Source: a virus (Duplodnaviria > Caudoviricetes). Taken from it: a stretch of DNA of 60,507 nucleotides. This document shows positions 10,330 through 29,948 of the stretch, one piece after another (the first letter of the stretch is position 1; each line of letters opens with the position of its first letter). Both the position numbers and the translations under genes were made by a program. The notes under the pieces are model-generated. The model searched no databases, was not told the DNA's origin, and saw only the letters and a list, made by a program, of their open reading frames with translations. The DNA is taken from positions 1 through 60,507 of the IMG/VR virus record IMGVR_UViG_3300030118_003585. One strand, 5' to 3'.

Positions 10330-10698
10330 TTACAGTACAAATTCTTTAAAAACAGCTTTTTTACTTTTTGCCATTAAACCGTCTTCAAAAGCTATGGTTA
10401 GTTTTTTACCACCTACGTTCCAGATGTTTGCTATGTTTCTACTATATGACTTATCTCTTTTCCAATCATATATTGTAAACACATTATCGCCTTGTTTTAA
10501 TACCCACTCATAATTTACTTTCTGATCCATTGACTGTCCTAAAATAGGTTCGCCAAACATTTTAACTAGATCATTATAAGTGACATTACACACATAACCT
10601 AATTTAAACGTTCCTGTTGTTATTTTAAACGCCTCTTCTTTTGTCTGTACTTGTTTAAGTTTTTTTAAACCTTTAATTACATTATTAATTCTATTCAT
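10330..10698 (-). CDS. hypothetical phage protein
   Basis: 122-aa ORF (FG-P...KV-x-x-EW...FTIYDWK...WNVGG), immediately 3' of the twister ribozyme. Confidence 0.75.
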   Translation of the reverse strand: MNRINNVIKGLKKLKQVQTKEEAFKITTGTFKLGYVCNVTYNDLVKMFGEPILGQSMDQKVNYEWVLKQGDNVFTIYDWKRDKSYSRNIANIWNVGGKKLTIAFEDGLMAKSKKAVFKEFVL

Positions 10699-10709
10699 AA
10701 CTTATATTT

Positions 10710-10763
10710 GTGCTCACTCTGTATTTACACGGGCTTGTGACCGTCCTTGGCTACATTAAGCAC
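10710..10763 (-). ncRNA. twister ribozyme (type P1)
   Basis: GUGCU UAA UGUA GC CAAGG ACGG U CAC AA GC CCGU GUAAA UACA GA GUG AGCAC: P1, L1 UAA, P2, P4 and both pseudoknots (CAC/GUG, GC/GC) present in canonical order; predicted cut U^A between 10758 and 10757. Confidence 0.93.
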
Positions 10764-11126
10764 GAGTTAGACAATGTATAGACATTGTAAGGTCTAGCTA
10801 ATCGGTTATCCCGCTTAATCTCGATAGCTTGCTGTAGTGTTCAACCACTATTCTCAAGTATTACTACTCATTGAATAATCATATCTGATTACAACAGTCT
10901 GGCTAACCTCAATAGCGTGAGGTGTTCCTTACCATCAGCCAGCTTCATACCTATCATAGAACAATCTATATCGTTCGTAGTAATAGACCTTAATCACTCT
11001 CAGTATATCTCTGATTATCATACTTATATTTATAAGCACGTCGTCTAGATGACTGAGCAACCCCCTACCCCTTGTTCTCGCAAGGCTTGTTGGGTACTAA
11101 CTCTTCGGTAGGTTTGCAACCCTACC
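10764..11126 (-). ncRNA. large structured non-coding RNA, family not recognised
   Basis: No ORF of 60 aa or more, GC-enriched, four long-range helices and about 8 local hairpins; the closing helix ends at the twister. Confidence 0.75.
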
Positions 11127-11140
11127 TACGCATATATAAA

Positions 11141-11218
11141 AGTTGCGGCTGCCAGCCAAAAAATAAATATGAAAAATTCTCTACAGTATAAATCGCACGT
11201 AGAACAGCAGCCACAACT
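11141..11218 (-). ncRNA. hairpin RNA/terminator displaying an anti-start-codon segment
   Basis: 12-bp stem AGUUGUGGCUGC/GCAGCCGCAACU, inner UUCUAC/GUAGAG stem, unpaired UUUUUCAUAUUUAUUUUUU. Confidence 0.55.
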
Positions 11219-11221
11219 ATA

Positions 11222-11518
11222 TTACTTTTTAACTTTATCTAATAATTTTTTTCTCATTTTATCTAGTTCTCTCCAACTATAAAACAGATCATCACCCCAA
11301 TGCATATTCCATGGTGTTATGTTAAGTGCATCACACTTACCTAATATTTTTTCTCTTAACAACCTTGTTTCGCTTATTGTTAACTCCCAATAATTAGCTT
11401 TTGCAAGAGCTTCTTTTATTTCGTTTTTTTCATACTCAAAAGTTTTTTTAGATGCCAAAGCTTTTTCTAGCTTTTTAATTAAACCTTTTCTGAGTTTTTG
11501 TTCTAAATTTTCAAACAT
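11222..11518 (-). CDS. hypothetical protein
   Basis: 98-aa ORF under promoter 11527-11559, co-transcribed with the RNA island. Confidence 0.7.
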   Translation of the reverse strand: MFENLEQKLRKGLIKKLEKALASKKTFEYEKNEIKEALAKANYWELTISETRLLREKILGKCDALNITPWNMHWGDDLFYSWRELDKMRKKLLDKVKK

Positions 11519-11526
11519 ATTTTTAT

Positions 11527-11559
11527 TTTATTATATTATTCACCTTGTATTAAGTCTGT
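11527..11559 (-). promoter_or_regulatory. phage promoter motif copy
   Basis: ACAGACTTAATACAAGGTGAATAATATAATAAA. Confidence 0.7.
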
Positions 11560-11645
11560 AATATCGCAGTGCTCATAACAGCACGAACATATTGGTGATG
11601 TGTATAGCACTTGTGCATTACAGCAGTCACTTAATTGTATATTAC

Positions 11646-11807
11646 TCATTTCCAATTTTTACAACATCTATCACTAATCCAATAATCACCGTACGGATCA
11701 GCTACATTATACTCTGATAACAAACGTCTAGCTTCGTTAATTGTTTCAGCTTCATCTAACGTTTCGTTACCAGTAGTGTTATTAAACTTATAATTTATAT
11801 AAAACAT
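11646..11807 (-). CDS. small hypothetical protein (53 aa)
   Basis: Likely start MFYINYK; the longer ORF call runs into the tRNA-like element. Confidence 0.65.
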   Translation of the reverse strand: MFYINYKFNNTTGNETLDEAETINEARRLLSEYNVADPYGDYWISDRCCKNWK

Positions 11808-11821
11808 TTCTTTATAATTTG

Positions 11822-11895
11822 AGGACGTGGCAGGAGTCGAACCTGCGTCTGGCACCTTTGCTTACGCCGAGGTTGCCGCCAACCATTTCACGCCC
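11822..11895 (-). ncRNA. tmRNA-like tRNA-like domain (mini-tmRNA, no mRNA domain)
   Basis: Acceptor GGGCGUG/CACGUCC with G3:U70, stemless D loop AAAUGGUUGGC, P2-like GGCA(A)CCU/AGGUGCC, GAC linker, T arm GCAGG-UUCGACU-CCUGC. Confidence 0.75.
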
Positions 11896-11900
11896 ATAAA

Positions 11901-11945
11901 GGAGGTAGCGGTACGCCGCGCGTTACTGTTACTGCCACTACCTCC
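11901..11945 (-). ncRNA. GC-rich 11-bp hairpin with 23-nt loop
   Basis: GGAGGUAGUGG/CCGCUACCUCC. Confidence 0.5.
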
Positions 11946-11946
11946 G

Positions 11947-12129
11947 TCGTTAAGTTAGTGTGGTAGGCGCCCGTTTACACTTGCTGGGTTTACGCCAGTA
12001 CATGTACGCTGCCTCGACTTATAACCTCCTATTTCTTAACGATTTCGTTAAGTTAGTGTGATCATTGCGCCCTGTTACCACTACTTTAATAAGTGCAGCT
12101 CGACTTACAGATCTCCTATTTCTTAACGA
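11947..12129 (-). repeat. two tandem structured RNA units (11947-12042, 12045-12129)
   Basis: Shared UCGUUAAGAAAUAGGAG...UAAGUCGAG...GGGCGC...CACACUAACUUAACGA with variable interior and self-complementary ends. Confidence 0.8.
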
Positions 12130-12386
12130 TGACTATAATAATATTCTTCAGAAGCTATGTCTACTATTTCTCGTTCTATGTTATCAAGGGTGTCTTGATT
12201 CATATAGCTTAATAACTCCGCGTATTCATTCCTATGCACTCCATTAATTCTAACTGCCTCATACTCAACATCATAGGCGCTCGGTGTATCACGATCACCT
12301 TCTGAATAAAAATACTTATAGTCTATTTCTAAATCAATATTACCTATAGTATACTCTAATGTTCCTTGAACGTGTTTGCCTACCAT
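12123..12386 (-). CDS. acidic hypothetical early protein
   Basis: 87-aa ORF whose stop lies inside the first repeat arm. Confidence 0.6.
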   Translation of the reverse strand: MVGKHVQGTLEYTIGNIDLEIDYKYFYSEGDRDTPSAYDVEYEAVRINGVHRNEYAELLSYMNQDTLDNIEREIVDIASEEYYYSHR

Positions 12387-12595
12387 TTATCTATCCTTTT
12401 AAGTAAATTATCATAGGTTATATCCTCTAATAAACTAAACTCTTCTTGCGTTAATTTATCTGACCAAGCGCTATAACTTAAATCATTGTTTATAGTTTTG
12501 TATATATACTCAGCTATATTACTTTCAAGCTCATCTAAGAACATCTTGTACTCTTTTGAGTTTGTAATTTGGTCATCTTCAATTATTTTGTTCAT
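12380..12595 (-). CDS. hypothetical early protein
   Basis: ORF downstream of promoter 12609-12641. Confidence 0.65.
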   Translation of the reverse strand: MNKIIEDDQITNSKEYKMFLDELESNIAEYIYKTINNDLSYSAWSDKLTQEEFSLLEDITYDNLLKRIDKW

Positions 12596-16702: not shown

Positions 16703-19700
16703 ATGGCTAGAATAAGCAATTATGCTTTTGATACTAACGTAAATAGGCAAGATTTTGTTTTTGGTACTGATAGTTCAACTAACGGTACTAAGAACTTTAA
16801 ATTTGTAGATCTTACAGAGTTTTTTGCACAGCAACAAGAGATATTAGGCAATAAGTTTGCATATAAATATATTAGTGTATCTGATTATAGTAATCTTGCA
16901 GCTGCAGAATTAAGCTTTAATGTCACAACAAGTACTGTAAACTTTTCTGCAATAACAGATATTTACATATATAAGATCAACGCACACGCTGTAGATATAG
17001 AAGCTTATTTAACAGAAATAAAAACCGCAGGTGGTGCACTTACTATATTCAACGGTGCTCAAACTACATCATTTGGTGTATTTAAAATAACTAATATATC
17101 ATCGCATAGCACAAATGTATTAAGACTACAAGTAACAGTAATATCTAAAAATGGATCAATACAAGATAAAAATCTGGCAAATGTATCATTTATATCTCCA
17201 AGTAGCGCAAGTATATTCACAGGCGTAACAACTACAACATCTTCACAATTAACATTAACAAACCCTAACGGACCGGTTGCAACACTTGATATTGTAACAG
17301 GTGCCGTATCTAATAACGGGTCGGGCCTTGCTACGCAAGCGCAAATAAAAAGTTATGTTGATTCACAAATAACAGCACAAGATTTAGACTTCCAAGGTGA
17401 TTCAGGCGGTGCGTTAAACATTGATCTTGACTCTGAAACATTAACTATTACTGGTGGCAGCGGTGTATCTACAGCGGGTAGCGGTAATACTATTACTATT
17501 AATGTAGATCATGATGCAATAACTAATTTTGTAGCTAATGAACATGTTGACCATACAGCAGTGTCTATAACAGCTGGTAATGGTTTAACAGGCGGCGGAA
17601 CTATAGCTTCTACAAGAACAATAGATGTAGGTGAAGGTACAGGTATAACTGTTAGCGCAGATGCAATATCTACTAATGATAGCGAAATAGTTCATGATAA
17701 TTTAAGTGGATTTGTAGCTAATGAGCATATTGATCACAGCGCAGTAACATTAACTGCAGGAACAGGTTTATCAGGTGGTGGCGATATAACAGCTAATAGA
17801 ACATTTAATTTAGCTAACACGTCTGTAACCGCTGGATCATACGGTAGCGCAACAGCAATACCAACATTTACTGTAGATGCACAAGGTAGATTAACGGCTG
17901 CTGGTACTGCATCTATATCTACATCATTTACAATATCAGATGGCTCAACTACTGATTTAGTTAATACTAGCGAAACATTATCTTTTGTAGGAACTACAAA
18001 CGAAATAGAAACTGCAGTAACAAATAATCAAGTACAAATAGGTATTGTAACTAACCCAACATTAACTGGTAATACAACGGTAACAGGAAGTTTAGATGTT
18101 GCAGGAGTAATTAAATTTACTGGTGGCTATGTATTAGATTCAGTACACAGCTTGAGATTAGATTCTGCCGCAAGCCAACCAATTACATTTAGTGTAGCAG
18201 ATAGTGAAAAGATGCGTTTAACATCAACAGGTAATTTTGGTATTGGAACAACAACCCCGGCGTATAAAATTGATATATCAGGTAGTTTAAGAGCAACAGG
18301 CGAAAGTACATTTACATCTAATTTATTGTTTCCTGATAATTCTAGAATAAAACTAGGGACTGGCCAGGATCTAGAAATATTCCACGATGGCAATAGTGTT
18401 ATTAGAAATCAAACTGCTGACTTATTTATTGATAATTATGCTGATGATGGAGATATAAAATTTAGGACTGATGATGGCACTGGTTCTCAAACAGAATATA
18501 TGAGACTAGATGGAGGTTCAACAAACATTGTATTTAGTAAAGATTTATTCCTTAATGATAATGTTAATTTAGGTATGGGTAATGGTGGTGATTATGCACA
18601 ATTTCATGATGGCACCAATACTTATTTATCAAATGGCACTGGAGATTTTTATATAAGAAATCAAGCAGACGACAAAGATATTATATTTCAAGCTGATGAT
18701 GGTAGTGGAGGTAATACTGCTTATTTAAGATTAGATGGTTCTGACAGTATGATGAAGGCTCATAAGAAATTAAGATTTTTAGATACTGTTGAAGCTGCTT
18801 TTGGTAATAATGATGACCTAAAAATATATCACGATGGATCAAATTCTTATGTTTATGATGCAGGTACAGGCGAATTAAGATTGAATTCTGATAACGCAGT
18901 AAGAATAAGAAAACACGACAATGAAACTATGGCATTGTTTACTGTTAATGGTTCTGTTGACTTATATTACGACAATAGTAAAAAGTTTGGAACTACATCA
19001 GATGGAGTTACAATTACAGGTAGTCTAAGTGCTACTACTGAATCTTTTTTCTATGGTGGCTTTTTAGTAACAGATACAAAAATAGGTAAATTTGGAACAG
19101 GTGGAGATTTACAAATATTCCATAACGGTAGTAATTCATTTATAACAAATTTTACAGGTAATCTTACAATTACAAATGAAGCAAACGATAAAGATATTGT
19201 ATTTAAATCTGATGATGGATCTGGAGGGTTTACTGAATATTTAACTCTTGATGGAAGCGCTGAAAAAATATTGATGCATAAATCAACAGTTTTTACAGGT
19301 GGTGGTATGGATTATGGTGTTGACGGTACTGGTGCAGATGTTATATTTTACGGAGATACTGCTGGTAGAAATATGAAGTGGGATCAAAGCGAAGATCATT
19401 TATTATTTACGGATAATACTAAATTAAAACTTGGTACAGGTGGAGACTTAGAAATATATCACGATGGTAGTAATAGTAATTATATCAGATCTACAACTAG
19501 CGATATATATATTAGAAATGAAGGTGATAATGATAGAATATTTATTCAAGCTACAAATAGCAGCACGTTAGCCAACTATTTAACTATTGACGGTAATGTA
19601 GCACTAACAAAATTTCATAAAAACACAAAGCACACAGATAGTATAAAAGCTACTTTTGGCGATAGTTCAGACCTAGAAATATATCATAATGGGAATGATT

Positions 19701-22700
19701 CAGTTATTGATAATTTAACAGGTGACTTATATATTTCTAACAAGGCAGATGATAAAGATATTATATTTAGAGGCGATGATGGTAGTGGAGGATTTACTGA
19801 ATATCTTAGGCTAGATGGCAGTAATACGAATATGGTAGCGTCTAAAACTATTTTATTTTCTGATAATGTAAAAGCTAGTTTTGGTAATAATGAAGATTTA
19901 AGGATCGTACATAATGGAACAAATACAGAATTTAATAATTATAATGGAGGTGTAAATTTTGTTCAACACCAGACTGATGGTGATATGGCATTTTATGCTG
20001 ACGGTGGTTCTGGTTCTGCTGTAGAATATTTTAGGTTAGATGGTAGTCAAACATCTATCAGAATGAAACGTATTACTAAATGGGACGATAACATCAAGGC
20101 TACTTTTGGCGATAGTGGAGATTTAGAAATTTATCATGATGGCAGTAATAGTTATATTAACGAAACAGGTACAGGCGGTTTAAAAATACAAGCTAGAGAT
20201 GCTATAACATTAGAAGACGGCACTACAGGTGAAAATTATATTTATATGCAACGTGATGGTAAAGTTGAACTTTACTATGATGGTTCTGCTAAATTACAAA
20301 CTACAGCCGGCGGAATAGATATAACAGGAACACTAGATACTTCAGGCACTATTGTTTCTACAGGAGGTAATATTAGAGTTGGAAGTGATACTGGTAAGTT
20401 TTTAGCAGGAGCATCAAATGATTTACAAATATATCATGATGGTTCTAATAGTTATATTCAAGATGCAGGTACAGGAAGTTTAATTATTGAAGGCACTACA
20501 TCAACACAAATTAAAGGTAGCGTTTTTGTTATTTTAAGATCTTTAGCAGGTGAAAATATGCTTATTGGTAATGCAAATGGAAGTGTTGATTTATACTATG
20601 ACGCCGTTAAAAAATTAGAAACAACAAGTACAGGTGCAACTGTAACAGGAGACATATTAGCTACCGCTGGAAATATAACATTAGGAACAGATAGTGTTGC
20701 TGGTAACGTTTTAACACCAAGCGATGTTTTAGCATTTACAGTAGATTCAAATAGTAATACAAGCGGTACACCAAATATACAGTTTAAAGTTGGTTCAAGT
20801 GAAAAGATGCGTTTAACATCAGCAGGTAATTTAGGCATAGGCACAGCAAGCCCTAACAGAGAACTTCACGTCATAGGACAGGTTGCAATAGACAACTCAA
20901 CGTCTCCAACAGCAGGTTTTTTAATTACAGGCGATGGTACTTCCAATAAAATTTATTCAAGAGTTGCAAATAATAGTAGTACTGCACATGAATTAGAGTT
21001 TATATTAGGTTCAACTACTGCTTTAACAATATTTCCAGATTTAGCTGCAACTTTTGCAGGTAATGTTACAGTTGGGGGTAACCTAATTGTCAATGGTACA
21101 ACAACCACGTTAAATACACAAACAGTAGAAGTTGAAGATAATATATTACAATTAAACACAACTCAAGGATCACCAGATACAGCTACAGCAACCACATCTG
21201 GTATATCTGTATATAGAGGTAACGGTGTTACACAAGCAAGCTTTATATTTGACGACGCGGACGATACATGGGATTTATCAAATAATTTAGTTATAGAAAA
21301 CACAAGTTCTACTACAAATGATTCCGTTAGCGTATTAAATTTAAAAAGTTTATCTTCTGGTACAACCGCAAATGGCTTTGGTGTAGGTTTAGGGTTTTTT
21401 ACTGAAAACTCAACATATTCTACAGTTAATGAATTAGGTAGGATAGAAGTTGTAGAAACTTCGGAAGTTAATTTGCATGATAAAATGATTTTTTATGTTA
21501 AGCATAATAATGTGCTTGCTGAAAGATTAAATATAACTGGTACAGGTTCAAATTTTGCAAGCAGTGTAACAGCTAAATCTTCTGGATCAAACATAGATGA
21601 AATATCACTAATACATTCTGGTAATACTGTAAAAATAGCTTCATTAGGTCAAAGCTCCGGACACGGTAGTCTAACATTAAGGAATAATAGTGGCGTTGAA
21701 ACAATTTCTGCGTCAACAGATGGAACTGACAGTACAATAAATAATGGTACAGGAAACCTACTTATACAAAACACAGCTAATGATAAAGATATAATATTGA
21801 AGTCAGATGACGGATCGGGCGGAACTACAGAATATTTTAGGTTAGATGGTGGAAACACAAATATTATAGTTTCAAAAGAAATGAGGTTTGGTGATGGTGT
21901 TCAAGCGCAGTTTGGCGCAAGTAACAATCTACAAATACAACATAACAGTGCTAATGGCTCAATAACAAATGCAACAGGCGATTTAACAATACAAAACAGT
22001 GCGGATGATAAAGATATTATATTTAGAACTGATTCTGGCGATGGTGGTACGACTGAATATTTTAGATTAGATGGTAGTGCAGAAAGAAATGTAGCATCTA
22101 AAGAAATAAACCATATAGATAATGTTTATGCAACTTTTGGTACAGGTAGAGATTTAAGATTAATACATGATGGCTCTAATAGTTTCTTTGAAAGTTATAA
22201 TCATAATTTATATATAGATCAAAACTTCGATGATGGAGATATAGTATTTAGAAATGACAATGGTTCAGGCGGTAAAACTACTTATATGACTATTGATGGT
22301 GGAGATGAATTAGTTAAGTTTTCAAGGGGCACTAAACATGCTGACAACGTAAGGGCGCTTTTTGGTAGTGGTTCTGATTTAAATATTTATCATGATGGTA
22401 ATAATTCGATTATTGATAACAATGCAGGAGATATAATTTTAAGATGTGATAGTGATGACATAAAAATATTAGCAGAAGATGATATTGTATTAAGAGATAA
22501 TGATGATAGTACAAATTTTATACATTGTATCAATGGTGGTGCTGTGAAATTATATCATAATGGTAGCGAAAAGTTTGAAACACAAAATACAGGTGTAAAA
22601 GTAACAGGTAATATTACTGTATCATCAGGCGTTGCTATTTTTAATGATGGCAATGGAATAAACTTTGGAAATAGCGATGCAAAAATCTATGGTTCAACTG

Positions 22701-25700
22701 GTACTGGTATACAATTTAATGCAGGTGGTTCAGAAGCAATGCGTCTTAATCAATCTGGTAATTTAGGAATTGGAACAACCTCACCTACGTCGCGTTTAAC
22801 GGTAAAAAGCACTGCAGTTGCTTTAGCAAACCAACCATTAATAGTAGCTAATTTTGATGGAACAGGAACAGACGGTTTAGCATTAATATCTGTAGATCAT
22901 ACAACAGTTAGTACCGCTGCTGCTTTAGGTGCTGGTATAAGATTTAAAACAGGTGATGGAACAACTGGTTCTAACACAAAACCTGGTTATATATTTATGC
23001 AAGGTGCTGGTAATAGTGATATAAAATATATAGCGCCAAGAGCTCATGCTTTTTATGTCGATCATCATGATGATGACTTAACAGGCACAACTTATACTGA
23101 TTATGGTACTTTATCGTTAACATTAAATGAAAATGCTTCTGCAACTTTTGCAGGTAAAATTATTGGTCAAAAAGGTATAGAAATTACTGGTGGTACTATA
23201 GCAAGTTCAACAGCGGTATTACATACAAATAATGTCATTTATTTTAGAGGCGGTAGTAATGGTTTGTTTTTACAAAATTCAGATGGTAGTGATGGTATTT
23301 TTATTGCAAATGATCACATTAAATTTGAAACAGGGAGTTCAGAAAGAATCCGTATTAATTCTTCAGGAAATGTTGGTATTGGAACGACAAGCCCTTCAGG
23401 CGCTTTACACGTGTATAATGGAACATCAGAAAGATTTTTAATTACTGGAGATGTACACGTTCAAGGTTCAACTGATTTAAATATTAATGGAACAAGTAGA
23501 CGATTAAGTTTTACAGCTGGAAGTGGTACAATAAGAACTACAACTGGTAATAGTTTAATACTACAAACAGACAACACTGATGGAATTGTAATTGATGGTT
23601 CTACACAAAAAGTGGGAATAGGAACTGCATCGCCTCAAAATAATTTACATATCTTTAGTGCCGGCAATGCAGAATTAGTATTAGAGCGCAATAGTGGAGC
23701 CGAAATATTACTGCAAGCTCAATCATCAGCAGGTGTAGTAGGAACTCAAACAAATAATGATTTAGATTTAAAAACTAATTCTACTACTAGGATAAGAATA
23801 AAAAATAATGGTAAGGTAGGTATCGGAACAACTTCACCGGGCTCTGAATTACATATAAAACAGGGAGATGACAGCGGTTTTGACGGCGGTTTAACTATTG
23901 AAAGAAGCGCTAATACACAAAAAGTTCATATAGGCATGGATGGTGGTGCTGTTAATTTTAACAGCCCTGATGGTTTAAGTTATAAATTTAGAAATAATAG
24001 TACAGAAAAATTTACTATAGATGGTTCAGGCAATGTAACAGCAAGTGGGTCTAGTAGTTCTTTTGGTACAGGTAATAGCGGTACTTTTATTACAAGCGAT
24101 ACAAATAACTATCCAAGAATTACAATACATCAAGCTAGTGCTCAATTAGGATTATTTAGATCAGGTAATGCTGTTGGAGGTATGTATATAGGCGGTAATG
24201 AAACTGGTTTCCGTATATTTACAGACTCTTTTGCCGAAAAATTTCATTTAGATCAAAGCGGTAATGGAACCTTTGCAGGTTCTGTTTTTACACAATTTAT
24301 AAAAAGTAACTCATCAGTTAGGATTGATATTGATAGCGATAATAACCAAACAGATAGATCATTTTTAATTAGCAAAGACAACGCTGGTACTGAATTGATG
24401 AGAGTTAATGAAGATGGGACTGTTGGTATTGGAACAAGTTCACCTCAAGCTTTATTACACCTTACAGGTACTGGATTACAAGGAGTGCAAGCTTGGTTTG
24501 GTAATGGATTTATAAATAATTCAAATTACCATTATGATTTTGCTAGAGTTGGTTTTTCTGTTCAAGCTACAGATGGTTCTGATACAGGCGCAGGATTTCA
24601 TTTTAATACAAGAAATACAGCAAACAGCAACTGGATGCACGGATATATATATCAACCTCAAAACGGAGGTATAGCGTTTGGTACAGGTGGTGCTGGAACT
24701 ACCTTAGCAACAGAAAAAATGCGCTTAACATCAACAGGTAGTTTAGGAATCGGAACTTCATCTCCTGCTCAAAAATTAGATGTTGAAGGTAACACTAAAT
24801 TAGATTTCAGTTTAATTGGTAGAGGTTTTAGGTCAGCAAATAGAGGTGAATTACATTTAAATGCAACCGGCGCAGATGATGTTGCTGAAATGTTTTTTGG
24901 TCATGGTTCTGGTCATACTGAAGGAAATATTAGATGGGGTATTTCAGACAGAGGTAATTCTAATGGTCAATTACACATTTATCAGGGTCCAGCTTTAGGT
25001 GGTTTTCATCCATTAATGACGTTTAAATCAAGTAACGATTGTGTTGGGATTAATGTAACAGCACCTACTATAAGATTAGATGTTAATGCAGACGCGAGTG
25101 ATAGTGTCGCAAGGTTTACATCAACAGATTCAAATGCAAGAATATTAATTGCAGACGTTGATGATACAATGTACGTAGGTACACAATCAAATAAATTTTA
25201 TATAGGTGCTAACGATAGTGCAACATCTGGTAATTTAATTATTGATACTTCTGGAAACGTAGGAATCGCAACTACTTCGCCTTTGCATAATTTACAAATA
25301 GGTACAGCAGCTACAAACGGTAGTTATTCAATGATGATAGAAGGTAATTTTGGTAATGATGCGTTAGCTTCTAATCCTAGATTAAATTTAATTGACACTA
25401 ATTTTGGAATTACAGCTGGAAAATATGGTAGTGGAACATCAAATGATGCATTAGGAATTTTTGCATATCAAGGCAGTGGAAGAGGTATAATATTTGGCCA
25501 TACAACAGCAGGCACAACTACACATTTAAAAGATATGCGCCATGATATGTTTATAGATGGCGGAGATGGTGATATAGGTATCGGAACGACTACGCCTAGT
25601 ACTAAGCTACACGTGTACGGAACTTTTGATCCTGACGACGCTTTAGGTTATGTTCATATAGAAAATGCTAGTACAACATCGGGCAACCAATCAACAAACG

Positions 25701-26437
25701 CAGCACTAACTATTAAAAACCATCACGGCACGTCTCAATTTATGCAATGGGAAGAAAATGGTTTAAGAATTGGTAGTAGAATTACAACAAATTCTGGAGC
25801 TGGAGATGTTTATTTTACAGCTGGAGCAGATAGTGTTAAAATGGTTTTAAAAGCCTCAGGAAATGTAGGAATCGGAGAAACAAATCCTGATAATAAACTT
25901 CATATTAAAGGCGGCTCAACTACTAGGTTAAAAATAGAAAGTTCTGGTTCTAATACAGGTGTTTTATTAACTGAAAATGGTTCAGATAAATGGAGTGTAG
26001 CAAGTGTTTCTGGTGGTTCTTTTCAATTATTTTCTGAAGCCGCATCTACAACTAGATTTGCTATTGATACTTCAGGTAATGTAGGAATTGGAAATACAAG
26101 CCCATCACAAAAACTTCACGTTACAGGTTCTATATTAGCATCAAGTGATGTTGTAGCTTTTTCAGATAAAAAATTAAAAGAAAATATTAAAACTTTAGAT
26201 GGTTCTAAAGTATATGATATGCGCGGTGTTAGCTTTACTAGAAAAGATACTGGTAAAGATAGTAGCGGTGTTATAGCGCAAGAGATACAAAAAATAGCAC
26301 CAGAATTAGTAACTGATAATGATGGTACATTAAGTGTTGCATACGGTAACCTTACTGGATATTTAATTGAAGCAGTTAAAGAGTTAAAAGCTGAAATAGA
26401 AGAACTTAAAAAACATAGTTGTGATTGTAAAAAATAA
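16703..26437 (+). CDS. giant tail fibre with C-terminal peptidase S74 intramolecular chaperone
   Basis: 3244 aa; repeated DLEIYHDGSNS / DKDIIF-x-x-DDGSGG and GNVGIGTTSP modules; SDKKLKENIK...GVIAQE...LIEAVKEL terminus. Confidence 0.9.
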   Translation: MARISNYAFDTNVNRQDFVFGTDSSTNGTKNFKFVDLTEFFAQQQEILGNKFAYKYISVSDYSNLAAAELSFNVTTSTVNFSAITDIYIYKINAHAVDIEAYLTEIKTAGGALTIFNGAQTTSFGVFKITNISSHSTNVLRLQVTVISKNGSIQDKNLANVSFISPSSASIFTGVTTTTSSQLTLTNPNGPVATLDIVTGAVSNNGSGLATQAQIKSYVDSQITAQDLDFQGDSGGALNIDLDSETLTITGGSGVSTAGSGNTITINVDHDAITNFVANEHVDHTAVSITAGNGLTGGGTIASTRTIDVGEGTGITVSADAISTNDSEIVHDNLSGFVANEHIDHSAVTLTAGTGLSGGGDITANRTFNLANTSVTAGSYGSATAIPTFTVDAQGRLTAAGTASISTSFTISDGSTTDLVNTSETLSFVGTTNEIETAVTNNQVQIGIVTNPTLTGNTTVTGSLDVAGVIKFTGGYVLDSVHSLRLDSAASQPITFSVADSEKMRLTSTGNFGIGTTTPAYKIDISGSLRATGESTFTSNLLFPDNSRIKLGTGQDLEIFHDGNSVIRNQTADLFIDNYADDGDIKFRTDDGTGSQTEYMRLDGGSTNIVFSKDLFLNDNVNLGMGNGGDYAQFHDGTNTYLSNGTGDFYIRNQADDKDIIFQADDGSGGNTAYLRLDGSDSMMKAHKKLRFLDTVEAAFGNNDDLKIYHDGSNSYVYDAGTGELRLNSDNAVRIRKHDNETMALFTVNGSVDLYYDNSKKFGTTSDGVTITGSLSATTESFFYGGFLVTDTKIGKFGTGGDLQIFHNGSNSFITNFTGNLTITNEANDKDIVFKSDDGSGGFTEYLTLDGSAEKILMHKSTVFTGGGMDYGVDGTGADVIFYGDTAGRNMKWDQSEDHLLFTDNTKLKLGTGGDLEIYHDGSNSNYIRSTTSDIYIRNEGDNDRIFIQATNSSTLANYLTIDGNVALTKFHKNTKHTDSIKATFGDSSDLEIYHNGNDSVIDNLTGDLYISNKADDKDIIFRGDDGSGGFTEYLRLDGSNTNMVASKTILFSDNVKASFGNNEDLRIVHNGTNTEFNNYNGGVNFVQHQTDGDMAFYADGGSGSAVEYFRLDGSQTSIRMKRITKWDDNIKATFGDSGDLEIYHDGSNSYINETGTGGLKIQARDAITLEDGTTGENYIYMQRDGKVELYYDGSAKLQTTAGGIDITGTLDTSGTIVSTGGNIRVGSDTGKFLAGASNDLQIYHDGSNSYIQDAGTGSLIIEGTTSTQIKGSVFVILRSLAGENMLIGNANGSVDLYYDAVKKLETTSTGATVTGDILATAGNITLGTDSVAGNVLTPSDVLAFTVDSNSNTSGTPNIQFKVGSSEKMRLTSAGNLGIGTASPNRELHVIGQVAIDNSTSPTAGFLITGDGTSNKIYSRVANNSSTAHELEFILGSTTALTIFPDLAATFAGNVTVGGNLIVNGTTTTLNTQTVEVEDNILQLNTTQGSPDTATATTSGISVYRGNGVTQASFIFDDADDTWDLSNNLVIENTSSTTNDSVSVLNLKSLSSGTTANGFGVGLGFFTENSTYSTVNELGRIEVVETSEVNLHDKMIFYVKHNNVLAERLNITGTGSNFASSVTAKSSGSNIDEISLIHSGNTVKIASLGQSSGHGSLTLRNNSGVETISASTDGTDSTINNGTGNLLIQNTANDKDIILKSDDGSGGTTEYFRLDGGNTNIIVSKEMRFGDGVQAQFGASNNLQIQHNSANGSITNATGDLTIQNSADDKDIIFRTDSGDGGTTEYFRLDGSAERNVASKEINHIDNVYATFGTGRDLRLIHDGSNSFFESYNHNLYIDQNFDDGDIVFRNDNGSGGKTTYMTIDGGDELVKFSRGTKHADNVRALFGSGSDLNIYHDGNNSIIDNNAGDIILRCDSDDIKILAEDDIVLRDNDDSTNFIHCINGGAVKLYHNGSEKFETQNTGVKVTGNITVSSGVAIFNDGNGINFGNSDAKIYGSTGTGIQFNAGGSEAMRLNQSGNLGIGTTSPTSRLTVKSTAVALANQPLIVANFDGTGTDGLALISVDHTTVSTAAALGAGIRFKTGDGTTGSNTKPGYIFMQGAGNSDIKYIAPRAHAFYVDHHDDDLTGTTYTDYGTLSLTLNENASATFAGKIIGQKGIEITGGTIASSTAVLHTNNVIYFRGGSNGLFLQNSDGSDGIFIANDHIKFETGSSERIRINSSGNVGIGTTSPSGALHVYNGTSERFLITGDVHVQGSTDLNINGTSRRLSFTAGSGTIRTTTGNSLILQTDNTDGIVIDGSTQKVGIGTASPQNNLHIFSAGNAELVLERNSGAEILLQAQSSAGVVGTQTNNDLDLKTNSTTRIRIKNNGKVGIGTTSPGSELHIKQGDDSGFDGGLTIERSANTQKVHIGMDGGAVNFNSPDGLSYKFRNNSTEKFTIDGSGNVTASGSSSSFGTGNSGTFITSDTNNYPRITIHQASAQLGLFRSGNAVGGMYIGGNETGFRIFTDSFAEKFHLDQSGNGTFAGSVFTQFIKSNSSVRIDIDSDNNQTDRSFLISKDNAGTELMRVNEDGTVGIGTSSPQALLHLTGTGLQGVQAWFGNGFINNSNYHYDFARVGFSVQATDGSDTGAGFHFNTRNTANSNWMHGYIYQPQNGGIAFGTGGAGTTLATEKMRLTSTGSLGIGTSSPAQKLDVEGNTKLDFSLIGRGFRSANRGELHLNATGADDVAEMFFGHGSGHTEGNIRWGISDRGNSNGQLHIYQGPALGGFHPLMTFKSSNDCVGINVTAPTIRLDVNADASDSVARFTSTDSNARILIADVDDTMYVGTQSNKFYIGANDSATSGNLIIDTSGNVGIATTSPLHNLQIGTAATNGSYSMMIEGNFGNDALASNPRLNLIDTNFGITAGKYGSGTSNDALGIFAYQGSGRGIIFGHTTAGTTTHLKDMRHDMFIDGGDGDIGIGTTTPSTKLHVYGTFDPDDALGYVHIENASTTSGNQSTNAALTIKNHHGTSQFMQWEENGLRIGSRITTNSGAGDVYFTAGADSVKMVLKASGNVGIGETNPDNKLHIKGGSTTRLKIESSGSNTGVLLTENGSDKWSVASVSGGSFQLFSEAASTTRFAIDTSGNVGIGNTSPSQKLHVTGSILASSDVVAFSDKKLKENIKTLDGSKVYDMRGVSFTRKDTGKDSSGVIAQEIQKIAPELVTDNDGTLSVAYGNLTGYLIEAVKELKAEIEELKKHSCDCKK

Positions 26438-28379: not shown

Positions 28380-29948
28380 ATGGAATTTAATAACCCGAGT
28401 CAAATCGTAAAAAATTTGTCTTTTGGTAATGAGGCAAATGCAAAAATAATAGAAGGTGTTGAAACGTTAACTAATGCCGTTAAGTCAACACTTGGGGCTT
28501 CTGGTAAGTGTGTTATATATGAAGACGCAAGAGGAAAACCAGTAATAACAAAAGACGGTGTAACTGTAGCAGAGTCTGTTATCCTAATGGATCCTGTCAA
28601 GAATATAGGTTGTACACTTATAAAAGAAGCCGCTAGCAACACTGTTAAAGAAGCAGGAGATGGCACAACTACAGCAACTGTACTGGCTTATCATATATTA
28701 AAATTAGCTACAGAGCAAAAGCAAGAAAATAATTTAAGAATTATAAAATCTGGCATCGATACTTATTTAGAAAAAGTAATTAAGTATTTAAATAAAAGCT
28801 CAAAAAAAGTTGTTGGTAAAATGCTTGATCAAGTTTCTACAATTAGCTGCAACAATGATAAAGTTTTAGGTAATATTATATCAGAAGCTTATAAAGTTGT
28901 AGGTAAAAATGGTGTAGTTTTAATGGAAGAATCACAAACTGAAGAAACATACTTTGAAACAGTAGATGGTGTACAGTTTGATAGTCCATTAAAATCACAA
29001 CATTTAGCAACAAATGAAGATAAAGATAAATCTATATTAGATAATCCTTATATATTAATTGTTGCATCACCTATACCTAATATAAGAAAGATACAAGCTG
29101 TACTAGAGCATACTATAAAAAACAAAAGATCTTTATTAATTGTTGCTAATGTAGATCAACAACCTACAGCTGCTTTAATGACAAACAAAGTAAAAGGTAA
29201 TATTAAAGTTAATATTATAGATTTACCAGGTTTTGGTTCAACAAAAAGAGATACATTAGAAGACTTAGCTTGTTTGACAGGAGCAAAAATAATCGATGAA
29301 CAATTAGGTGATGATTTAGATTTAATACAACCTGATGTTTTAGGCGAAGCTTTAAAAAGTGTTACAGATAATAAAAATACTGTAATTACAATAAATGAGG
29401 TACCTGACATAGCTACAGAGCGTATTGATTTAGTTGAAGAAAAAATTAAAAAAGAAAAAGATCCGTTTATAAAAATAAAACTAGAACAAAGACTAGCAAT
29501 GTTATCAGGATCTGTCGGTATTGTCAAAGTAGGAGCTAATAGCAAAATAGAATTAAAAGAAAAAAAAGACAGAGTTGAAGATGCTATTTATGCTACTAAA
29601 GCCGCTTTACAAGAAGGTATTGTTGCAGGTGGTGGTGTTGCTTTGTTAAACGCATCGGAAAAAATTAAAGCAGTAAACGTAGGTGAAATGGTATTATCAG
29701 AAGCTATAAAACAACCATTTTATACAATTATAAATAATGCTGATATTATACCACCTATAAAACTACAACCTAAAAAAGGTATAAATGTAGTAACAGGAGA
29801 TGTTGTAGATATGATAAAATCTGGAATTATAGATCCAGTATTAGTTACAAAAACGGCTTTAAAAAACGCTGTTAGCGTTGCTAAAACCATAATATCTGCA
29901 GACTGTGTAATATCAAATAAAAGAGTTGAAGAAGATGCAAGCAGTTAA
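28380..29948 (+). CDS. groEL: chaperonin GroEL (Cpn60)
   Basis: ITKDGVTVA, AGDGTTTATVLA, GIVAGGG, IIDP motifs. Confidence 0.97.
   Translation: MEFNNPSQIVKNLSFGNEANAKIIEGVETLTNAVKSTLGASGKCVIYEDARGKPVITKDGVTVAESVILMDPVKNIGCTLIKEAASNTVKEAGDGTTTATVLAYHILKLATEQKQENNLRIIKSGIDTYLEKVIKYLNKSSKKVVGKMLDQVSTISCNNDKVLGNIISEAYKVVGKNGVVLMEESQTEETYFETVDGVQFDSPLKSQHLATNEDKDKSILDNPYILIVASPIPNIRKIQAVLEHTIKNKRSLLIVANVDQQPTAALMTNKVKGNIKVNIIDLPGFGSTKRDTLEDLACLTGAKIIDEQLGDDLDLIQPDVLGEALKSVTDNKNTVITINEVPDIATERIDLVEEKIKKEKDPFIKIKLEQRLAMLSGSVGIVKVGANSKIELKEKKDRVEDAIYATKAALQEGIVAGGGVALLNASEKIKAVNVGEMVLSEAIKQPFYTIINNADIIPPIKLQPKKGINVVTGDVVDMIKSGIIDPVLVTKTALKNAVSVAKTIISADCVISNKRVEEDASS

Follow-up and report, generated by a model that had tools for sequence, protein, structure and literature searches.

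Two tandem RNA units in a phage genome very probably represent free-standing copies of a tmRNA helix-2 module

Phages are known to encode transfer-messenger RNAs (tmRNAs), albeit rarely, and what these RNAs do for them is unsettled. Mao et al. 2009 is reportedly the source for the inhibition of tmRNA by a molecule that contains only its tRNA-like domain. Genes for tmRNA are given for 2.3% of phage genomes (PMC9004378), the ssrA gene of mycobacteriophage DS6A comprises little beyond the tRNA-like domain, and a tRNA-like-domain-only molecule inhibits tmRNA, perhaps via titration of SmpB (PMC4131195, PMC11915505). Here we analyse a small RNA cluster in the window, which is the entire record of a virus in IMG/VR (60,507 bases, an estimated 94% complete, ~30% G+C). 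Its minus strand carries between 12129 and 11819, in this order, two RNA units (A and B), a hairpin (C) and a tmRNA-like tRNA-like domain. As judged from their relatives, units A and B are very probably free-standing copies of a hairpin that elsewhere forms helix 2 of miniature tmRNAs.

The two units are separated by the dinucleotide AA and, together with the elements recognized in their cores by alignment, are laid out as follows.

12129..12045, minus strand: unit A, 85 nt, an 8-bp closing stem UCGUUAAG/CUUAACGA around the frame-1 strands AAGAAAUAGGAG...CACACUAACUU, with a 52-nt core
12042..11947, minus strand: unit B, 96 nt, closing stem and frame-1 strands as in unit A, with a 63-nt core
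12107..12099, minus strand: UAAGUCGAG, 5' element of the Z-type core, unit A
12021..12013, minus strand: UAAGUCGAG, 5' element of the Z-type core, unit B
12072..12067, minus strand: GGGCGC, 3' element of the Z-type core, unit A
11972..11967, minus strand: GGGCGC, 3' element of the Z-type core, unit B

Identical ends of 16-17 nt thus flank unlike cores. CGTTAAGAAATAGGAG is present in exactly two copies (12128..12113 and 12041..12026), as is CACACTAACTTAACGA (12060..12045 and 11962..11947), and outside UAAGUCGAG and GGGCGC the cores of the two units do not align. The first-pass annotation of this DNA had described two tandem RNAs with a constant frame and differing cores, a description that the exact duplicate ends and the mapped coordinates bear out; the inner stem that it gave as GAUC/GAUC in one unit and GGU/ACC in the other is present. 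Both units match exactly the definition of the motif that we call frame-1, which consists of the AAGAAAUAGGAG and CACACUAACUU strands with a variable closing stem below them and a G-C pair and a variable stem above. In its shortest and commonest form frame-1 is a 31-nt hairpin, AAG AAA UAG GA G-NN-GAAA-NN-C ACA CUA A CUU. The predicted fold of unit A has an energy of -22.1 kcal/mol (z = -3.0; 2 of 200 shuffles equally good) and that of unit B -23.8 kcal/mol (z = -1.32; 21 of 200 equally good). Thermodynamic support is therefore moderate for unit A and weak for unit B, and the case rests on the relatives.

A search with the primase/helicase of the window identified 45 related loci (65-75% identity), to which the DNA of the RNA cluster could be aligned only in the T arm and over a single run of 19 nt in the unit B core (in locus L037). 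Motif searches nevertheless located frame-1 in 7 of the 45. A first motif scan, with AAATAGGAG...TAAGTCGAG, gave a single chance match (L002); exact-pattern scans of IMG/VR with three gap ranges gave 2 + 19 + 2 = 23 stretches, 4 of them contigs already found. The total stands at 25 distinct copies on 27 viral or phage-like contigs and the window, and the frame is identical in both units and across these copies although their flanks are unalignable. In one genome per prokaryote species, the exact short-core pattern matched once, in a phage-like contig of a metagenome-assembled genome, this being a scan that could not detect host tmRNA, where the helix-2 strands lie far apart. No GenBank phage was matched by blastn with 11500..12500 of the window, and a blastn search with a one-piece RNA carrying frame-1 (from L049) returned only T-arm matches in 6 unrelated phages, with no frame-1 at blastn sensitivity.

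Frame-1 shows conservation as an RNA, with stems that covary. In a set of 15 distinct short-core copies, each taken with 8 nt of flank, the frame positions are invariant, except that G17 is A in 1 of the 15, leaving that pair unpaired. The first flanking pair, 8-40, is UA in 10 copies, CG in 3 and AU in 2, paired in every case; the first apical pair, 21-28, is AU in 6, GC in 5, GU in 2 and UA in 2; and the second apical pair, 22-27, is CG in 11 and UG in 4. Paired cells amount to 84.3%, compared with 76.7% in shuffles, and the covariation score is 0.270 compared with 0.120, neither value being reached by any of 500 shuffles, while control structures in which the partners were slid by 1-3 columns were 22-44% paired. 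The G.U pairs, two at 21-28 and (as UG) four at 22-27, are confined to the gene strand, and the RNA strand is therefore the strand of the genes. The closing stems of free-standing copies differ from one another (UCGUUAAG, GAAGAAG, GAAAAAG, GGUGGGU, ACUGGU and others) and all of them pair. The structural selection that had been proposed from the two units alone is thus seen in the copies on other contigs, as invariant internal loops between covarying flanking stems. A covariance model (R1) built solely from the 15 short-core copies of other contigs recovered unit B with 34.8 bits (E 1.7e-4) and unit A with 28.3 bits (E 5.5e-3), among 9 matches in all over 802,497 bases.

No Rfam family accounts for the units. 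The whole window has no Rfam match at the gathering threshold, and cmscan of 11500..12400 at E <= 10 returned only a tmRNA match to the neighbouring domain, so that the outcome the first-pass annotation had named as speaking against it, a known Rfam family, did not appear. The 6S-like RNA that it had listed among the candidates finds no support in this search, which matched the units to no 6S RNA, riboswitch or known self-cleaving ribozyme. ARAGORN made no call anywhere in the window. Being closed on themselves by UCGUUAAG/CUUAACGA and devoid of a T arm, the units lack what defines the tRNA-like domain of tmRNA, and no tethering complementarity between them and the neighbouring domain was seen.

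What frame-1 is became apparent from its contexts, which we counted over 28 contigs, the window included. In 13 of the 28, frame-1 is helix 2 of a tRNA-like domain, lying between GGGCGUGAAAUGG...GAC and ...ACGCAGGUUCGAxUCCUGCCACGUCCA, or variants of these; the RNAs so formed, ~79-185 nt long, combine a T arm with a 7-bp acceptor stem in which the G3.U70 pair is present. The Rfam tmRNA model aligns the one-piece 146-nt RNA of L049 with 45.2 bits (cut-off 47; E 6e-17) and places frame-1 on the helix-2 columns, and for the 186-nt form of L033 ARAGORN reports a tmRNA bearing the tag ERTEVYYIC*. We also scanned metagenomes for the 3' half of frame-1 followed by the start of the T arm, which gave at least 119 matching stretches. 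Among the 119 matches listed, 60 are frame-1 joined to the tRNA-like domain and 59 are chance matches to this loose pattern; both halves of the frame are on the contig in 58 of the 60. Of these 58 listed stretches, 41 have a core of 8 nt and 9 a core of 61 nt; cores of 26, 44 and 114 nt occur twice each, and cores of 67 and 71 nt once each. The listed matches have three types of acceptor, GGGCGUG/CACGUCC, GGGAGUG/CACUUCC and GGGGGUG/CACCUCC, all of which retain G3.U70 while position 4 covaries as C-G, A-U and G-C, and no full-length host-type tmRNA carrying frame-1 is among them. With frame-1 linked to the domain in 13 of 28 contigs and in 60 of the 119 listed stretches, and with the 8-nt core prevailing in the latter, the commonest and native context of frame-1 is a mini-tmRNA of ~79 nt, composed of an Ala-type tRNA-like domain and frame-1. 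An 8-nt core leaves no room for a tag, and the longer forms do not conserve a tag frame: in L049 the T arm is reached without a stop, and a 10-nt deletion distinguishing L005 from L033 shifts the frame.

The domain is doubled or altered in some relatives. L066 (60-330) has two tRNA-like-domain RNAs, the one bearing frame-1 having a GGACGUG acceptor (A3-U70, no G.U) and being followed directly by a GGGAGUG-type domain with another insert; L010 likewise has two in one locus (1-45 and 275-358); and a similar domain in L068 has an AGACAUG acceptor without G3.U70.

The remaining contigs carry frame-1 apart from the domain. It is stem-closed and free-standing in 6 of the 28 (the window, L004, L037, L042, L068 and L071), nested at the tip of a second conserved frame (GACGAGUAGCUUAAUUAGG...ACAUAAGUGAAU) in 3 (L011, L059 and L067), at the tips of terminator-like hairpins followed by a U-run in 4 that belong to other kinds of phage contig (L056, L069, L061 and L065), and downstream of an open reading frame (ORF) ending ...DLPF in 2 (L052 and L072). 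A search for the T-arm/acceptor pattern found none in the five records that hold L056, L061, L052, L065 and L072, two of which are near-complete (G003, 96%; G004, 100%). With no tRNA-like domain detected in these records, frame-1 behaves as an autonomous module. The tandem pair is found in the window only, among 90 stretches with frame-1 (some of which are one contig twice); frame-1 is single-copy in 88 of the 89 others, and L156 has two non-tandem copies, one on a tRNA-like domain and one nested upstream. The first-pass annotation overlooked both that frame-1 is the helix-2 module of the tmRNA-like family to which the neighbouring mini-tmRNA itself belongs, and that it occurs as an autonomous hairpin in records without a detected tRNA-like domain.

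The remainder of the cluster consists of two further elements.

11945..11901, minus strand: hairpin C (GGAGGUAGUGG...CCGCUACCUCC), from its fold, 5 nt upstream of the tRNA-like domain
11895..11819, minus strand: mini-tmRNA, tRNA-like domain only (Rfam tmRNA 31.7 bits, cut-off 47, E 7e-11)

The mini-tmRNA has the acceptor GGGCGUG/CACGUCC with G3.U70 and the T arm GCAGG-UUCGACU-CCUGC. It comprises 74 nt and a trailing CAA; the DNA reads UCAA past the acceptor stem, and no CCA is encoded. With G3.U70, a T arm and little beyond the tRNA-like domain, it has the features of the DS6A type, and its alanylation is predicted from these letters. Its helix 2 is a hairpin unrelated to frame-1, and a helix 2 other than frame-1 is also found in the tRNA-like domains of L008, L010, L011, L020, L023, L024, L035 and L042; the helix-2 position of this scaffold is hypervariable. 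The discriminator position is U in the window and A in the relatives. Hairpin C occupies the place at which L023, L026, L042 and L008 have a stem-closed 'domain 3' before the tRNA-like domain.

Compared with tmRNA in general (SsrA; RF00023), frame-1 of the relatives lies where helix 2 does, between the 5' acceptor/D-analogue strand and the T arm, whereas the units lack both a tRNA-like domain and a match in Rfam, conserve no tag frame, and are self-closed and in tandem; the invariant loops of frame-1 are absent from the general consensus in the L049 alignment. The coding-less tmRNAs of DS6A and of organelles resemble both 11895..11819 and the ~79-nt RNAs of the relatives in consisting of a domain and a hairpin, but what those reports deal with are tRNA-like domains, and here the helix-2 hairpin stands apart from the domain. 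In the two-piece permuted tmRNAs of Alphaproteobacteria, cyanobacteria and phages like Melnitz, functions are likewise spread over the pieces of one locus (PMC9004378); those pieces pair via the acceptor stem and helix 2 and their gene is permuted, whereas this locus has a complete domain and self-closed units. A mini-tmRNA limited to the tRNA-like domain is thus of a kind already known, and detached tandem helix-2 units with swappable cores would be a new variant; no description of a free-standing tmRNA helix-2 module was found within a limited library of literature.

The cores of units A and B are of a recurrent type, which we term the Z module and which is also present in L037, L156 and L071. 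Between the unit B core and the L037 module, stretches of 20 and 14 nt are identical, on either side of 23 nt inserted in unit B. The L037 copy lies in a different helix and a larger domain, before a tRNA-Met and not before a tRNA-like domain, and the module recurs in L156 within a frame-1 that is nested in the second frame. Unit A, L071 and L023 have core variants that share UAAGUCG, a heptamer that is invariant in 5 aligned Z modules. As the unit B core recurs in L037 in another helix and in L156 inside a nested frame-1, the cores are exchangeable modules shuffled between phages and not decayed copies of each other; inserts are always at the apical loop of frame-1. The frames that follow UAAGUC run for 6 codons in unit A, for 5 in L037 and L156 (in L156 with the stop in the hairpin loop) and for 21 codons in unit B, into the closing stem.

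The first-pass annotation had remarked that AGUCGAG of the units is complementary to the T loop UUCGACU of the mini-tmRNA, while allowing for coincidence. The complementarity is true by the letters and is not conserved in relatives. Coincidence is probably the right explanation, because L037 has the same core module at an RNA locus that lacks a tRNA-like domain and whose tRNA-Met has another T loop.

Contigs from four RNA-library runs of three studies, placed on the window, allowed alleles of the cluster to be read, with patchy cover (11740..11887 and other bins have none). The number of units is polymorphic. Two contigs have both units (X17, covering 11940..12314, and X18, covering 11920..12122); in X16, which has unit A only, 12045 adjoins the ten letters found in front of 11947 in the window; and in X15, which has unit B only, 12025 is joined to 12113, skipping 87 nt inside the shared frame. 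Variants within unit B fall at 11988 and 11994, in or beside the predicted apical hairpin loop, at 12005, where T>C changes a predicted A-U pair to G.U, and at 12022, where AUAAGUC becomes GUAAGUC, the unit A form. The ends of these contigs (11940, 11920 and 11934) do not coincide, so that they contain no evidence of processing.

We favour, with somewhat better than even confidence, the interpretation that units A and B are detached and duplicated tmRNA helix-2 modules that serve the partner of helix 2, likely in trans-translation. In this phage the tRNA-like domain has acquired a different helix 2, and frame-1 lies just upstream in the form of two tandem stem-closed units. The cluster would be transcribed with the surrounding early genes, and cleavage by RNase P at the 5' end of the tRNA-like domain could free the units upstream; the domain itself would require 3' trimming and CCA addition, because the DNA reads UCAA after the acceptor stem. 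Each unit would then be a stable small RNA that displays the invariant loops AAA/A and GA/ACA, which flank UAG/CUA, for a partner to bind in trans. Most likely this would be the partner that helix 2 has in the mini-tmRNA, presumably the ribosome, SmpB or another part of the trans-translation or ribosome machinery of the host. The locus would in this way manipulate ribosome rescue in the host during infection, the units supplying additional helix-2 binding sites, and the published inhibition by tRNA-like-domain-only molecules makes such manipulation the most economical reading. Partner binding by a structured and selected RNA is also what stands of the protein-binding role proposed in the first-pass annotation; its 6S-like, antitoxin and guide variants are unsupported.

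Several observations weigh against parts of this interpretation. The folding energy of unit B is indistinguishable from that of shuffles, and R1 misses the copies with the longest cores (L005 and L033), a mark of its sensitivity. Six relatives (L008, L010, L020, L023, L024 and L035) have a tRNA-like domain and no frame-1 in the DNA examined. SmpB was not detected in the window, so any SmpB involved would be that of the host, and the presence of frame-1 in phages without a detected tRNA-like domain means that its partner need not be a factor of trans-translation. The RNA-library contigs may include DNA and cannot reveal RNA ends; what they prove is alleles, not transcription. We therefore grade the parts of the interpretation separately: the identity of the units as free-standing frame-1 copies is very probable from the motif and its relatives, and the link to trans-translation, which draws on the context of frame-1 in those relatives, is tentative and short of an even chance.

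Other explanations have been considered. Because one-unit and two-unit alleles coexist, the locus is mosaic in every relative, frame-1 is missing from some of them and unit B folds no better than shuffles, the units might be non-functional recombination debris, the decaying remnant of a tmRNA body that was cut away from its tRNA-like domain and then doubled by unequal crossing-over. We consider this improbable, since decay is hard to square with a frame identical in both units and in 25 distinct copies despite unalignable flanks, with variation found only at stem and loop positions and compensatory there, with differing closing stems that always pair, or with the 12005 variant of unit B, which turns a predicted A-U into G.U. 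Alternatively, the units might be the mRNA-like pieces of a split tmRNA, in which the Z core supplies a resume region (UAAGUC then GAG...) and a short tag frame, working jointly with the adjacent tRNA-like domain in the manner of two-piece tmRNAs. The likeness of the Z core to a resume region with a hairpin after it is suggestive, and the core does lie inside the tRNA-like domain in the one-piece RNAs of L033 and L049, the former with its ARAGORN tag call, and the short frames of unit A, L037 and L156 end in the hairpin. The frames are not conserved, however, as the 21 codons of unit B, the missing stop of L049 and the L005/L033 shift illustrate, and the commonest core (8 nt, in 41 of 58 listed stretches) could not hold a tag. 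The units are moreover self-closed and untethered by any complementarity seen, and the tRNA-like domain is complete and hairpin-closed, unlike the permuted two-piece genes of PMC9004378; a split tmRNA is thus quite improbable.

A constant scaffold with cores that differ between units and between phages is also what would be expected of guide or regulatory small RNAs, in which the frame binds a protein and the core pairs with a host or phage target, a possibility that the first-pass annotation had raised. Complements to the cores, or to hairpin C, are absent elsewhere in the 60.5-kb phage (the best is 11 nt, E >= 0.4, with 0.4 the lowest value), the cores are mostly self-paired in the predicted folds, the commonest core is merely an 8-nt stem and tetraloop, and Pfam finds no guide-using protein family among the 10 ORFs near the locus. 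We believe that such a function is very unlikely. The least probable of these explanations, to our minds scarcely credible, is that frame-1 is a small selfish DNA element which inserts at hairpin tips and owes its uniformity to recent spread. It is true that a near-identical 31-nt unit sits atop unrelated stems in very different contexts. But there was no sign of a transposase, of an integrase (the window lacks Phage_integrase, PF00589) or of duplicated target sites, inserts into frame-1 are always at its apical loop, and the restriction of internal variation to paired positions, where it is compensatory, points to selection on RNA structure.

In type III toxin-antitoxin systems of the ToxI type, antitoxin RNA repeats stand in tandem beside the gene for a toxin endoribonuclease. 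The units share with such arrays the direct tandem of short structured RNAs on a phage or mobile element, but there are two units only, their cores are unlike, and no adjacent toxin gene was found. The antitoxin mimic offered by the first-pass annotation finds no support in this comparison: no toxin-like gene adjoins the units, the 10 neighbouring ORFs having no Pfam family above cut-off.

A bolder extension, which we regard as doubtful, is that the cluster is a modular RNA 'display' locus of marine Flavobacteriia-type phages, in which a few invariant scaffolds present rapidly exchanged apical modules. The scaffolds would comprise the Ala-type tRNA-like domain, frame-1, with its origin in helix 2 of tmRNA, and two or more other frames. 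On this doubtful extension the tandem units might be RNA-level arms-race cassettes, acting as decoys or sponges for host ribosome-rescue factors or for RNA-sensing defence proteins with an SmpB-like fold, and their copy number and cargo might turn over via recombination inside the constant frames.

Returning to the interpretation of the units as detached helix-2 modules, frame-1 is a candidate RNA family absent from Rfam. Marine phages of a widespread, uncultured group keep a miniature and apparently tag-less tmRNA, of which helix 2 is better conserved than its surroundings, and this helix 2 can live alone, in tandem or in phages without a detected tRNA-like domain, its apical inserts being swapped between phages. 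The 31-nt hairpin with two invariant internal loops is a predicted, probable binding site, and may offer a handle on the purpose of tmRNA-like RNAs in phages.

Two further frames occur in the relatives. The second, GACGAGUAGCUUAAUUAGG...ACAUAAGUGAAU(U/A)GC, has variable inserts and is present in L004, L008, L011, L048, L049, L055, L057, L059, L064, L066, L067, L071 and L156, usually directly after a small zinc-finger-like ORF that ends ...WRRK. The third is a stem-closed domain before the tRNA-like domain in L037 (1360-1585), L042 (4030-4210), L049 (6090-6160, minus strand), L051, L053 and L060. It is closed by AGGUGAGG...CCUCACCU or GAGAGGU...ACCUCUC around an inner conserved frame GGAUAAA...CCAGUCC whose stem covaries, GACAGGA/UCCUGUC in some and GUGUGGA/UCCACAAC in others.

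The cluster is embedded in a run of small leftward ORFs. The last nucleotides of ORF 12123..12386, its TAA stop codon among them, coincide with the first 7 nt of unit A, and the next ORF begins at 11807; the cluster therefore lies inside a gene run on its own strand. The units have a G+C content of 43% and hairpin C with the tRNA-like domain one of 59%, compared with 29-30% in the flanks. Sigma-70-like hexamers, TAGACA-17-TATTAT, occur on the minus strand at 12163..12135, ending 6 nt before unit A; the promoter scan as a whole was at chance (14 sites, with 11.9 +/- 3.4 expected) and used a consensus that differs from that of Bacteroidota.

The window encodes a large terminase, a portal protein, a GroEL-like chaperonin (28380-29948, plus strand) and the primase/helicase. 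Its terminase shares 62% identity with the one in a single uncultured Caudoviricetes record and ~45% with those of Flavobacterium podophages, and is matched by 87 records, Cellulophaga, Tenacibaculum and Maribacter phages among them. On the basis of this similarity to Flavobacterium-type phages, the host is probably a marine member of the Flavobacteriia. An ORF of 3244 residues (16703-26437, plus strand), in which Pfam recognizes only a Peptidase_S74 (endosialidase chaperone) domain at the C terminus, probably encodes a giant tail fibre.

A candidate type-P1 twister self-cleaving ribozyme lies at 10711-10762 on the minus strand (56.2 bits, cut-off 67.2, E 6e-12). The letters of its conserved core align, one hairpin is missing, and its end lies 13 nt ahead of the start of ORF 10330..10698. 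Directly upstream, at 10763-11221 on the same strand, are ~460 nt with 40% G+C, without a gene-strand ORF of at least 45 residues and without a further Rfam match. A 448-nt copy with 91% identity is present in L071 (7567-8014), and this segment is probably another structured RNA.

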